A DNA stretch of 64,000 nt from Candidatus Marinacidobacterales bacterium (lineage in GTDB: Bacteria > Acidobacteriota > Vicinamibacteria > Marinacidobacterales > DATDRI01). Shown in pieces: positions 34,507-39,767 of the stretch (its first letter is position 1; every line of letters begins with the position of its first letter). The DNA lies in assembly GCA_965219415.1 (NCBI GenBank), contig OZ244742.1, positions 1,024,001-1,088,000 of the forward strand, in the 5' to 3' direction. The translations under genes were made by a program, and so were the position numbers. The notes under the pieces were generated by a model that was not told where the DNA came from, made no database searches, and was given only the letters and a program-made list of their open reading frames with translations.

Positions 34507-34714
34507 TCGTGTTTCCGTTCAAGCGGATGGATCCCCTCCCTATACCCCAGTGCGGAAGTTGTTGTCAAAGTTGCCCTCACAGCGCTGTCCGTTTCCGGAA
34601 ACCGTTCGTCCCGTTCGCGGGCACCGCAGCGGCCTTGGCAGTGCCGGCCTGCACGATTCGCGGCATTCTCGCGGTCGCCGGCCGGTACAGTTATTGCAAC
34701 TCAGCTGTTGCATT

Positions 34715-36925
34715 GTGAGATTTCTCAACGATCTCCGCTACGCTTCCCGGAGGCTCCGCAGAGCGCCTGGCTTCACCCTAGGAGTCGTCTTGGTCCTGGC
34801 TCTGGGTATCTCCGCGACTACTTTGGTTTTCAGCATCGTCTACTCCATCCTGCTGCGACCTTTGCCCTACACGGCTCCGGATCGACTCGTGCGCATACTT
34901 TCCCTCAACGAGGCGGAAGGCCACCTCGATTGGACTTCCATTTTGGAGGCCCGCGCGTGGCAGAGCGAAAGCGCAACGTTCTCCGATGTCGGGTTCTCGA
35001 CCTATTTCGGCGTCATGTGGCGGACGAGCCAGTGGAATGAGCAGGTCAACCACGGAGTGGTATCCGCAAACTACTTCGATGTTTTCGGCGTTCGACCCGC
35101 CGTCGGGAGATTCTTCGTCAAGGAAGACGAAGCCGCCGATAGCCCGCCACTCGCCGTGTTGAGCCACCGATTCTGGCTCGAACGGCTGGGCGGAAACGCG
35201 GGCATCGTGGAGCAGGTGCTCAACCTCGGGGGAGAGGATCACACGGTGATCGGGGTTGCTCCGCCGGTGATCTACGGCCACGACCTAGGAAGCGACGTGA
35301 GTCCCGAGCTCTGGGTCACCTTGCGAGCCGGCGAAAATCCTCGCAACCCCCACTTCCGGATCTACACCGCTTTCGGGCGGCTCGCGCCCGGGGTGTCCGT
35401 CGGGGAAGCCTCGACTAACCTTCAAGTGGTAAGCGATCGACTGGCGCAGGATTTCCCGGAGACCTACGCCGGGTGGAAAGTGTCCCGTAGAACCCGTGCT
35501 CGACTCGTTCGTCGACCAAACGAGGCCGGGGCTTTACATGCTCCAGGCAGCGGTCGGGCTCGTCCTTCTCATCGCTTGCGCGAATATCGCAAACCTGATG
35601 CTTTCTCGCATCATGGGCGATCGCCGGGAAATCGCGATTCGGCTCGCCTTGGGAGGAGGCCGGAGCGATCTCGTGCGTCAGGTGTTGGCAGAGAGCTTGC
35701 TGCTCGCGCTCGCCGGAGGCACGGTCGGCCTGACCATTGTGGTCTGGGTGCTCCCGGTTCTAACAAGCTTCCTACCGCAGGGTCTCCCGCGTGCGGATGA
35801 GCTCACCGTGGATCGAGCGGTGCTGACCTTCACCATGTTGCTGGCCCTCGGGTCGACCGTAATCTTTGGCCTCTTACCGAGCTTCCTAATGTTGAGAGGA
35901 GATCTTGCAAGCTTCCTCAGGGAGGCTGGAAAAAACATCGGCTCGGCAGGTAGTCGGTTCAAGGATCTTTTCGTCGTCGGGCAAGTAACCATCGCCCTAC
36001 CGTTGCTGATCGGCGCCGGCCTGTTGATCCATAGCTTCGCCTACCTGCAGGAAAAAGATCCCGGATTTGAACCCAAGGAGGTGGTTTCTCTGCGCGTTTC
36101 GTTGCCCTTCCGCCAATACCCCGAACCGGCGAGGCGGGCCGCTTTCTTTGAGAATCTTCTACGAGAAGTAAGACGGCTACCGGGAGTGAGCTCCGCAGGC
36201 GCGACCCTGCAAGTGCCCTACGTCAGCACACAAGCCGACCGAGCAGACTACTCGGTGGAGGGTGATCCGATGCCACCGGCCTCGGAAACGCCAAGAGCAC
36301 TCACCCATGTGATTAGTCCAGGATTCTTCGAAACGCTGGGGGCGCGCCTCGCCCAAGGACGATGGTTCGACAATCGTGACGCGGCCGATTCGACACCCGC
36401 GGTGATCGTCAGTCGCGAGCTCGCGCGCCGGCACTTCGCCGACCGGGATCCGATCGGACGTCGCATTGTCTTTGACATCACGTTGTCCACGAGGTCGCCG
36501 CGCTAGACGCGGCGTTCTCCACGATCGTGGCACGCCCGCGGCTCTATGCTTCGGTGCTCGCTAGCTTCGCGTTTCTTGCTCTTCTCCTGGCCGGCCTCGG
36601 CCTCTACGGAGTTCTCTCTTACGTAGTGAATCAGAGAACACATGAGCTCGGTATCCGAATGGCCCTCGGCGCGCCGCGTTCCAGCCTCCTTGCTGGAGTC
36701 ATGCGCAGAGGATTGAGCCTGACGCTCGTCGGTTTGGCCCTCGGGGCGCCACTGGCTTTCATCTCGGCGCGAGTCTTGGCCACCGTACTCTACGGAGTCC
36801 AATCCATCCACCCCATGACGTTTGCGGTGACGCCCTTCGCCTTGTTGCTAGCCGCCGGATTGGCTTCCTATTTGCCGGCACGTCGGGCAACGCGGGTCGA
36901 CCCCGCGACCACTCTCAGACACTGA
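34715..36925 (+). CDS. ADOP-type duplicated ABC permease; frameshift near 35488, internal deletion near 36500
   Basis: [50 protein letters not shown]. Confidence 0.85.
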
Positions 36926-37881: not shown

Positions 37882-39333
37882 CTAGCCCTTAATCACACCC
37901 ATCGGGCGGAGTTGTGCGACCTTCTGGCTGATGCCCGCTCCCTGAACCACATCCACGACTTCCGCGACGTCTTTGTAAGCCTCCGGAATCTCTTCCACCA
38001 AAGTGGCTCTCCCTGAGGCTCGGACGATGATCCCCTGCTCTTCCATCTCGCGAACGATGGCGCGTTTGCCGGCGGTCTTCCGCGCCTGGCGACGACTCAT
38101 CCGCCGCCCGGCACCGTGGCAGGTACTTCCAAAGGTCTCCTGATAGGCGCGCTCCGTGCCCACCAAAACATAAGAGTAACGGCCCATGTCCCCGGGGATG
38201 AGGACCGGTTGTCCAACCGCGCGGTAGGCGGAGGGAATCTCGGGATGGCCGGGTGGAAAGGCTCGCGTCGCTCCCTTACGGTGGACGCACAGTTTTTTCT
38301 TCTTGCCTCCGACCCGATGCTCTTCGAACTTAGCGATATTGTGGCAAACGTCGTAAACCAAACCGAGGCCGAGTTTCCCGCGGCCAATTCCGAGCACCTT
38401 CTCGAAGCTCTCGCGCACCAAGTGCGTGATCATTTGCCGGTTAGCGAAGGCGTAGTTGGCGGCCGCCGACATGGCACCTAGATAACGCTTCGCCTCTGGA
38501 GAGGTCAGAGGTGCGGCGCAAAGCTGGCGATCGGGGAGCTCGATGCCGTACTTCGCGGAAGCGCGTAGCATGATCTTCAGGAAGTCGTCACACACCTGAT
38601 AGCCGAGCCCGCGGGACCCGGTGTGGATCGAGACCGTCACCTGTCCGGGGAATAGACCTAGAGCATCGGCAAGCCTCTGGTCGTAGATTTCGGCGACGTA
38701 CTGGATCTCGCCAAAGTGGTTCCCCGAACCGAGCGTCCCCAGTTGCGAGCGCCCGCGTTCGATGGCGCGGGGACTGACCTCGTCAGGATCCGCACCCTCG
38801 AGGCAGCCCCCTTCTTCGATGTACTCGAGGTCAGTTTCGGTTCCGTAGCCGTTGGCCACTGCCCAACCCGCACCTCGCGTGAGAACTCGTCGCAACTCAG
38901 ACTGGGGGAGCTTGAAATCGCGACGGTGCGCCCCGACACCGGTTGGAACATTGGCAAAGAGGGTCTCGACCAACTCCCGGAGTTTTCCGTCGACGTCCTC
39001 GCGACTCAGACCTGAGCGCAGTAGCCGGACTCCTCAGTTGATATCGAAACCGACACCCCCCGGCGAGACCACGCCGTCGTCTTCGGGCGAGAAAGCGGCA
39101 ACGCCCCCAATCGCGAAGCCGTAGCCCCAATGAATATCCGGCATCGCGATGGACCGGCCTACGATACCGGGAAGGGACGCCACGTTGGCCACTTGCTCGA
39201 GGGCAGGATCCCCGCGAAGGGTGTCGACGAAAGACTGGCTCGCGAAGACCAATCCCTCGACACGCATCTTCCCTTCTCTCGGGAGCCGCCAGCGGTTGTC
39301 GTCGATTTTCTGAATCTTGACTTTGCTTGCCAT
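37882..39333 (-). CDS. rtcB: RNA-splicing/repair ligase RtcB, 483 aa, with in-frame TGA (codon 100, putative selenocysteine)
   Basis: The two track ORFs share one frame; [50 protein letters not shown], terminal IKG. Confidence 0.92.
38995..39033 (-). promoter_or_regulatory. Candidate bacterial SECIS element
   Basis: After UGA: GUCC/GGAC lower stem, GCGCUCA-[GGUC]-UGAG(U)CGC upper stem-loop. Confidence 0.75.
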
Positions 39334-39353
39334 CGCGTTTCCTTTCGGACGCT

Positions 39354-39767
39354 TCATAGATCGAAAACGATTGTCGTCGAGAGAGATTTCCCCTGCCTCA
39401 CCAGTGCCATGCGGTGGTAGGTCACCGCCTTCACTTCTCGATCGATGGGATGGCGCTCGGGATCGAGCTTCTCACCCCACGCCTCAGCCTCGAACCGACG
39501 GTCTTCCACGAGCCGGGGCTCGAATCGGGAGAACAGCCATCTTTGGTCTTCATAGAGAAAGAGAAGCTCGGTGAGCCAGGACACCAGGAGCTCTTCGTCG
39601 CTCGCGGCCTCGACGCTTATCGAGACCGACTGCCGCGGTTCGACGGTTCCCAAATCGGTGATGATGTCGAAAAGGGCTCTTGCGGCCTCGGAAAAGAGCT
39701 CCGGCTTCCCTTCCGCGACCACCTCGACCATGTAGTCGGCCGTGTGGTCCAACACGCGGTAGGGCAC
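39354..39767 (-). CDS. Archease (RtcB activator)
   Basis: [14 protein letters not shown]-terminal VFDL; immediately upstream of rtcB. Confidence 0.92.

Follow-up and report, generated by a model that had tools for sequence, protein, structure and literature searches.

RtcB ligases join RNA at an active site that holds two metal ions. In P. horikoshii numbering, metal site M1 is formed by His234, His329 and Cys98, and M2 by Asp95, Cys98 and His203; Cys98 is common to both and bridges two Mn2+ ions, its replacement by alanine abolishes all ligation steps, and in one structure it is oxidised to sulfonic acid (PMC9745838, excerpt). The matching cysteine of human RTCB is prone to metal-induced oxidative inactivation (PMC12263435, excerpt). 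Selenocysteine (Sec) replaces a metal-coordinating cysteine (Cys) in formate dehydrogenase alpha, at Mo or W, and in [NiFeSe] hydrogenases, at Ni (PMC13188914, section 7); the advantage proposed for Sec in the latter is protection from irreversible over-oxidation (PMC13188914). These are redox enzymes with redox-active metals, in contrast to RtcB, which performs nucleotidyl transfer and ligation at a binuclear Mn2+ site without net redox chemistry. Sec has been placed at exactly the same active-site position in an engineered P. horikoshii RtcB, U98, by an artificial, EF-Tu-dependent insertion at UAG98 that works without a selenocysteine insertion sequence (SECIS) and served as a read-through reporter only (PMC4150793, excerpt). 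Here we describe a natural rtcB gene with UGA at this position. It lies on the minus strand of a stretch of 64,000 nucleotides (nt) from Candidatus Marinacidobacterales bacterium (contig OZ244742.1, positions 1,024,001 to 1,088,000), termed the window in the following. Sequence comparisons indicate that the UGA, codon 100, is very probably decoded as Sec in a functional full-length RtcB RNA ligase.

The window gene resembles the Cys-type RtcB proteins (P. horikoshii, structures 1uc2, 4dwq and 7lfq; T. thermophilus TTHA1785, structure 2epg; E. coli; human RTCB) in fold family, length, metal ligands, the His404 nucleophile and contacts with guanosine triphosphate (GTP), and likewise has archease upstream as activator. 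The bridging residue is encoded by UGY in the Cys-type genes, whereas the window gene has UGA together with a hairpin in codons +5 to +12 of its reading frame. Two open reading frames (ORFs), 39357..39034 (107 aa, ending in GGVGFDIN) and 38973..37882, share one frame, and between 39357 and the terminal TAG the single in-frame stop is the TGA at 39036-39034. From ATG 39333, the start kept among relatives (MASKVKIQ, MTSKVKIQ, MTGKVKIQ and others), which has an AAGGA-like stretch a few bases 5' of it, the protein comprises 483 aa. Counted from the upstream ATG 39357 it comprises 491 aa with the TGA at codon 108; this longer reading, with C in place of U, served as the query.

The read-through product covers the whole Pfam RtcB profile PF01139 (1-426 of 426, E 7.7e-178) and matches solved structures in HMMER with E values from 4.9e-189 (2epg) to 1e-171 (7lfq). 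HMMER places the TGA codon opposite Cys98 of the P. horikoshii enzyme, which is C118 of chain 7lfq_A, a chain with 20 extra N-terminal residues relative to the native 1uc2. Asp95, Asn202, His203, Glu206, His234, His329, Asn330, His404 and Lys480 (P. horikoshii numbering) are all kept. In the numbering of the 483-aa protein the metal ligands D97, H206, H237 and H331 are present and the UGA occupies the bridging position, so that the bridging ligand would exist only with Sec or Cys inserted at the UGA. Both the His404 nucleophile and the residues in contact with GTP align, in STCHGAGR (H406), GSGNHFGE (N205, E209), HN (N332) and the terminal KG (K482). A reading of the window made from its letters alone, the sequence-only reading, had described two same-frame ORFs parted only by a TGA, a 483-aa protein with the TGA at codon 100, otherwise intact catalytic motifs including the terminal KG, and Cys98 of P. 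horikoshii RtcB as an oxidation-sensitive Mn2+ ligand. The first two points hold as described, the third agrees with the translation and the structure alignment, and the fourth with PMC9745838 and PMC12263435 (both in excerpt). The minus strand of the window carries an intact archease-rtcB operon, the parts of which are listed in Table 1; the archease TGA stop lies 20 nt 5' of the rtcB start. No second full-length RtcB was found in the window's genome, where the four other matches are short, with E of at least 2e-7.

Table 1. Parts of the archease-rtcB operon, in positions of the window
Feature	Position	Strand	Basis
Archease gene, 137 aa, RtcB activator partner	39354..39767	-	Pfam PF01951 Archease, E 7.8e-41, profile 1-136 of 136
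rtcB codons 1-99	39037..39333	-	Translation; ATG 39333 conserved; dN/dS 0.04-0.12 among 7 family members
UGA codon 100, predicted to be read as selenocysteine	39034..39036	-	Aligns with metal-bridging Cys98 of P. horikoshii RtcB
Candidate bacterial SECIS hairpin, 8-bp stem, one bulged U, loop GGUC 39012-39009	39000..39020	-	Fits published bacterial SECIS model
rtcB codons 101-483: remaining metal ligands, His nucleophile (STCHGAGR), terminal KG	37885..39033	-	Translation, Pfam, structure alignment
rtcB TAG stop	37882..37884	-	Reading frame

Independent homologues with TGA in the DIN-TGA-G motif, the object of one check proposed in the sequence-only reading, were found in the window's family, in the phylum and across species. 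The search covered 61 related genomes. Six of the seven other genomes of the window's family possess a full-length RtcB, and five of these six (G001-G005) have TGA at the codon; the seventh genome, G007 (unpublished, 83% complete), gave a weak partial match and was left out. Together with the window's genome (G000), the TGA genes come from four genera, the window's own included, at 79-95% protein identity, and the sixth relative, G006 (88% identity), has TGC. From a sample of 401 genomes of the phylum, 163 with an RtcB match at E <= 1e-60, 59 loci were taken, 58 of them with the motif. The codon is TGA in 18 of these and TGC or TGT in the other 40 (38 distinct sequences, G010 appearing twice). 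Twelve of the TGA genomes (G155, G176, G251, G267, G281, G286, G291, G336, G350, G404, G417 and G444) lie beyond the family and belong to about ten families; the genome count is a lower bound, as fifteen RtcB matches of the sample lie outside the matches listed.

A scan of one genome per species with a 32-letter degenerate DNA pattern spanning the codon identified TGA-RtcB in at least 120 species genomes under about ten phylum labels, all bacterial among the matches listed. By the labels in the record titles, the 120 listed stretches comprise Thermodesulfobacteriota (30), Nitrospirota (27), Acidobacteriota (24), Myxococcota (10), Pseudomonadota (5), Binatota (2), Eiseniibacteriota, Gemmatimonadota and Planctomycetota (1 each) and unplaced records (19). 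The 120 best database hits of the read-through protein all read C at the site. Chance does not account for a TGA that recurs at this codon in 18 of the 58 motif-bearing loci of the phylum and in at least 120 species genomes.

This recurrence bears on whether the gene is alive. A nonsense mutation might have killed rtcB and left the two ORFs as decaying remnants: a gene caller using translation table 11 sees two ORFs, and broken rtcB genes exist elsewhere, with a lone TGA at another site in G175, a frameshifted second copy in G100 and a frameshifted gene in G010. We consider decay very improbable, given that 18 genomes of the phylum and at least 120 species genomes share the codon. Among the seven sequences of the window's family, the ratio of nonsynonymous to synonymous divergence (dN/dS, Nei-Gojobori) is 0.04-0.12 upstream of the TGA and 0.04-0.12 downstream of it, over synonymous divergence (dS) between genera of about 0.7 up to saturated. 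Of the 120 listed pattern loci, 92 contain the stop that ends the frame past the TGA, and in 87 of these 92 it stays open for 381-383 codons past the TGA, which is the rest of RtcB. The window gene has no further stops or frameshifts and is the sole full-length RtcB found in its genome.

A sequencing or assembly error that turned TGC or TGT into TGA has practically no chance of being the explanation. TGA is one base from TGC, and the close relative G006 does have TGC; five related genomes from four genera nevertheless have TGA, and so do strain variants of the window from two other studies. These variants (X7 record 22 and X10 record 4) share the same six differences from the window over ~750 nt, at 38880, 39022, 39055, 39103, 39124 and 39304, and none at 39034-39036; this confirmation that the TGA is genuine comes from contigs rather than raw reads. 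A 10,139-nt public contig is identical over this region and may be the source. Reassignment of TGA throughout the genome was considered and rejected: TGA ends 20 of the 39 window ORFs of at least 250 aa, archease among them.

The RNA just past the UGA has the form of a SECIS. The window hairpin, 5'-UGCGCUCA-GGUC-UGAG(U)CGCG, has eight pairs and one bulged U; with the U of UGA as nt 1, its GGUC loop occupies nt 25-28. The SECIS of E. coli fdhF has a GGUC loop as well. The published model of the bacterial SECIS (bSECIS) comprises an apical loop of 3-9 nt on a stem of 4-16 bp, G at loop positions 1-2, mostly followed by G or U, a distance of 16-37 nt from UGA to loop, and a minimum free energy (MFE) of at most -7.5 kcal/mol (PMC13188914, section 5). 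The window hairpin agrees with it on all counts, with a 4-nt loop, an 8-bp stem, GG followed by U, a spacing of 21 nt and an MFE of -8.8 kcal/mol. All 18 TGA sequences of the phylum sample are able to form a small hairpin directly past the TGA. Of 206 conserved codons with four- or six-fold degeneracy, only 13 show no change among the seven family sequences; codons +5, +6, +7, +8 and +11 (CTG CGC TCA GGT .. CGC) are all invariant, and the top-scoring 7-codon windows of the gene are those that cover the hairpin, with five of seven codons invariant. The two changes inside the hairpin fall on loop position 4 (CTG/TTG) and on the bulge (AGT/AGC).

In other lineages the hairpin is built from different stems, its G-U-containing loop lying equally far from the UGA. 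Examples of such stems are GAAGACC/GGUCUUC, UACGGACC/GGUCUGUA, GAGAACC/GGUUCUC, GCUCGCC/GGCGAGC and CGCACCG/UGGUGCG. Among 106 distinct TGA sequences of the short-hairpin type, which show 53 stem/loop variants, a small loop at nt 22-31 is closed by 5 or more contiguous bp in 95. When each sequence was re-coded synonymously 200 times with the codon usage of its own gene, the share of TGA genes with the hairpin fell from 89.6% to 13.6%, compared with 13.2% real and 9.1% randomised in Cys genes. A single RNAalifold consensus over all short-hairpin sequences gave no structure, because the lineages use different pairing registers, and the hairpin region, compared with Rfam at E <= 10, gave nothing beyond a snoRNA match of 10.1 bits that is attributed to chance. 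A further 24 TGA sequences (e.g., L088, L102 and L190) carry a hairpin of another type, much longer than that of the window: about 15 bp with a 9-nt loop from near nt 31, pairing 15-54 to 21-49 and further in. Its pair 18-51 is G-C in 6 sequences, C-G in 16 and unpaired in 2. Conserved and covarying, the hairpin is, as judged from these comparisons, selected at the RNA level.

Three Cys genes with TGC retain the hairpin or a near copy: L021 (G006) and L046 (G174), in which the core CTGCGCTCAGGTCTGAG is identical, and L048 (G452), which has the near copy. G006, G174 and G452 look like recent Sec-to-Cys changes, with this as the presumed direction.

The hairpin also speaks to the idea of a split enzyme, in which translation stops at the UGA, a second polypeptide starts from TTG 38973 and the pieces assemble. 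The table 11 ORF does begin at this TTG. Such an enzyme would lose the metal-bridging residue and the next 20 residues, which are conserved as protein in all relatives, and it leaves the hairpin and its restriction to TGA genes unexplained; the TTG, moreover, is not kept as a start, the codon being GTG in L020 and CTC in L023. A split enzyme is scarcely credible on these grounds.

The window's genome encodes the whole Sec machinery that was sought. Its tRNA-Sec scores 69.7 bits against RF01852 (cut-off 47) and is called tRNA-SeC with anticodon tca by ARAGORN; SelA scores 475.8 bits, the C-terminal winged-helix domain of SelB 58.5 bits in a 660-aa frame, and SelD 328.3 bits. The selD gene (L013, G000:C3:3889655-3890587, + strand) has its own in-frame TGA in ...LVTCAG-TGA-ASKLSP..., in the UxxK motif that is listed for selenophosphate synthetase (PMC13188914, Table 1). 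With an in-frame TGA in both SelD and RtcB, the organism has at least two predicted selenoproteins. Ten further matches to the tRNA-Sec model in G000:C3, at 31.8-43.6 bits and thus below the cut-off, are probably long-arm tRNAs (Ser, Leu).

Recoding of the UGA to a residue other than Sec deserves separate consideration, since DNA alone does not tell Sec insertion from Cys insertion. A tRNA that inserts Cys with the help of SelB is on record for certain bacteria, and the tRNA-Sec-like matches below the cut-off would be candidates for such a non-canonical tRNA; near-cognate read-through with Trp or Cys, stimulated by the hairpin, is the other variant. The canonical tRNA-Sec, SelA and SelD are all present, and SelD of the same genome uses the same kind of UGA. 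TGC, one mutation away, is used by 40 of the 58 phylum loci. The retention of TGA and hairpin over saturated dS, with TGC so close at hand, therefore argues for a distinct residue, and recoding to anything but Sec appears improbable.

How often the codon has changed was estimated from a quick, unrooted FastTree of 243 RtcB sequences (98 TGA, 145 Cys) with the codon column masked, from which loci without 90 codons upstream or 370 downstream were left out. The tree needs at least 30 changes between the Sec and Cys states, compared with 76.8 on average and never fewer than 65 in 200 label shuffles. It contains 38 maximal pure-TGA clades, the largest with 22 rows that are all Nitrospirota-labelled and include long-hairpin sequences, and in a clade of 13 five phylum labels occur side by side. 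The pattern is consistent with Sec and Cys having replaced each other often and with some horizontal transfer, direction and donors being beyond an unrooted tree; the gene and the SECIS inside it appear to have passed jointly from phylum to phylum. Taken together, the sequences indicate that the catalytic residue bridging the metals in RtcB is a bona fide Sec/Cys pair, widespread in Sec-using bacteria. The sequence-only reading had proposed a Sec-RtcB, and this proposal gains from the Cys98 alignment, the recurrence of the codon, the Sec machinery and the SECIS-type hairpin, which was absent from that reading.

Several observations weigh against decoding as Sec or lend it less than might appear. 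The 25-nt window hairpin alone is not significant, as 31 of 200 shuffles fold equally well, and neither is the 71-nt fold (z = +0.93); a single sequence folds unremarkably, and the case for a SECIS therefore rests on comparative evidence. Within that evidence, composition-corrected shuffle z-scores are lower for 130 distinct TGA sequences than for 38 Cys sequences (-1.45 vs +0.08; Mann-Whitney p = 1.4e-6) in a test that treats related sequences as independent, though relatives are not. Raw fold energies do not differ, at -15.7 (TGA) and -15.3 kcal/mol (Cys); this comparison was dropped, being also confounded by GC content (0.59 vs 0.69). Each of the 18 TGA-RtcB genomes tested (the window's, five relatives and 12 of the phylum sample) has SelA, so the expected co-occurrence with Sec machinery is there, and it discriminates weakly because 301 of the 401 phylum-sample genomes have SelA; several SelA-negative genomes (e.g., G059, G068, G071, G086 and G101) have a Cys-RtcB. 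Five of the 92 pattern loci have shorter frames past the TGA, of 86, 133, 324, 378 and 379 codons. Transcript evidence consists of one 157-nt metatranscriptome contig (X15) at 39067-39223, short of the UGA; it is identical to this section of the N-terminal part of rtcB, may reflect DNA carry-over and was not counted as proof of transcription. Selenium in the polypeptide, insertion of Sec rather than another residue at the UGA and activity of the Sec-RtcB as a ligase are inferred from sequence. In addition, the engineered P. horikoshii U98 protein cut itself at a nearby peptide bond (PMC4150793, excerpt), and Sec at this site is therefore not automatically benign. In contrast to that construct, the window RtcB is natural, combines UGA with a SECIS and is conserved in many lineages.

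If the UGA is decoded as Sec, the following sequence of events can be proposed. An RtcB 3'-phosphate/5'-OH RNA ligase would be made from the archease-rtcB operon; as the ribosome arrives, SelB with Sec-tRNA(Sec) would bind the GGUC-loop hairpin 21 nt past the UGA and deliver Sec to the ribosome, giving Sec100. The selenolate would then replace the Cys98 thiolate as the sole protein ligand bridging M1 and M2, the catalytic pair of Mn2+ ions. Otherwise the chemistry would be the same and depend on GTP, proceeding through His-GMP (guanosine monophosphate on histidine) and RNA3'pp5'G to sealing; guanylylation and sealing are expected to be unchanged because all other catalytic residues are kept. 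The benefit could be an active site that is harder to inactivate by oxidation, and less irreversibly so, possibly with altered metal affinity or selectivity. We infer this gain in oxidation resistance by likeness to the Sec ligands of Ni and of Mo/W. The at least 30 Sec/Cys changes, with the apparent moves between phyla together with the SECIS, likewise suggest that the selenolate may resist oxidative and metal-induced inactivation. PYROXD1, which protects human RTCB (PMC12263435, excerpt), counters the same liability of the active-site cysteine to metal-induced oxidative inactivation by means of a metazoan accessory flavoprotein, in contrast to the change of chalcogen in the ligand proposed for the window RtcB.

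Among loci with enough upstream DNA, archease is the immediate upstream neighbour of rtcB, in the same orientation, in 102 of 117 with TGA and in 29 of 36 with Cys. The other neighbours in the window encode a P450, MacB/FtsX, cpn60, SDR and glycosyltransferase proteins and, archease aside, are unrelated to RNA repair. On the plus strand, the overlapping ORFs 34550-35800 and 35496-36506 lie in different frames and both match MacB_PCD, the second also FtsX; the pair (34550-36506) may represent a frameshifted gene for a single ABC-type permease or else an artefact of ORF listing. Other in-frame TGAs of phylum RtcB genes were set aside, as none recurs at its site. One of them belongs to the G175 gene (L067, G175:C1:95600-98100, - strand), which has Cys at the catalytic site and a non-recurrent TGA in AADPSHV-TGA-DRAVERG that may reflect nonsense mutation, error or read-through. 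The TGAs of G274 and G334 lie 5' of the start, and in G087 the stop is a TAG, also 5' of the start.

The best-scoring NCBIfam models for the read-through protein are 'intein-containing RtcB' exception models, which it matches below their cut-offs. The splice junction of the P. horikoshii RtcB intein is at Cys98 (PMC4150793, excerpt). With an intein junction and a Sec codon at the same site, this codon is a hotspot for inteins and for Sec recoding.

Full-text literature searches combining RtcB or older names of the family with selenocysteine or selenoprotein found no natural Sec-RtcB and only the engineered U98. Table 1 of PMC13188914 (May 2026), with 119 prokaryotic families and subfamilies including those annotated only in GenBank, does not list RtcB, PF01139 or any ligase. 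Neither PMC13188914 nor the main text of the BSepDB paper contains the words RtcB, ligase or splicing, an earlier mention in a supplementary table being possible. NCBIfam release 20 has no selenoprotein model for RtcB, and a 2026 review of tRNA-ligase enzymology contains no word beginning with 'selen'. Natural Sec-RtcB is apparently undescribed so far, with room for a prior mention in a supplementary table or a database annotation. We lean, by a small degree, towards regarding Sec-RtcB as a genuine, widespread and undescribed selenoprotein family, the first selenoenzyme of RNA ligation and repair, with a selenolate bridging binuclear Mn2+ in a non-redox nucleotidyl-transferase. It is a variant of RtcB ligases and of SECIS-dependent selenoproteins rather than a new mechanism.

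Most selenoproteins are thiol-oxidoreductase-like (PMC13188914), and a Sec RNA ligase, if true, would extend selenium biology to the chemistry of RNA repair and splicing. Three hairpin types in one protein family add covarying examples of SECIS elements. Unless the TGA is recognised, annotation would be expected to divide the gene or mark it as defective in at least 120 species genomes. Natural Sec/Cys pairs make oxidative control of RNA ligation and the metal selectivity of M1 and M2 testable: G003 and G006, which differ at the codon and have the same hairpin, form a matched natural pair, and the Cys genes L021, L046 and L048, with the hairpin or a near copy, would serve as natural matched controls. 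For the organisms that carry it, Sec-RtcB would, if true, be a one-residue alternative to the protection that PYROXD1 provides in animals.

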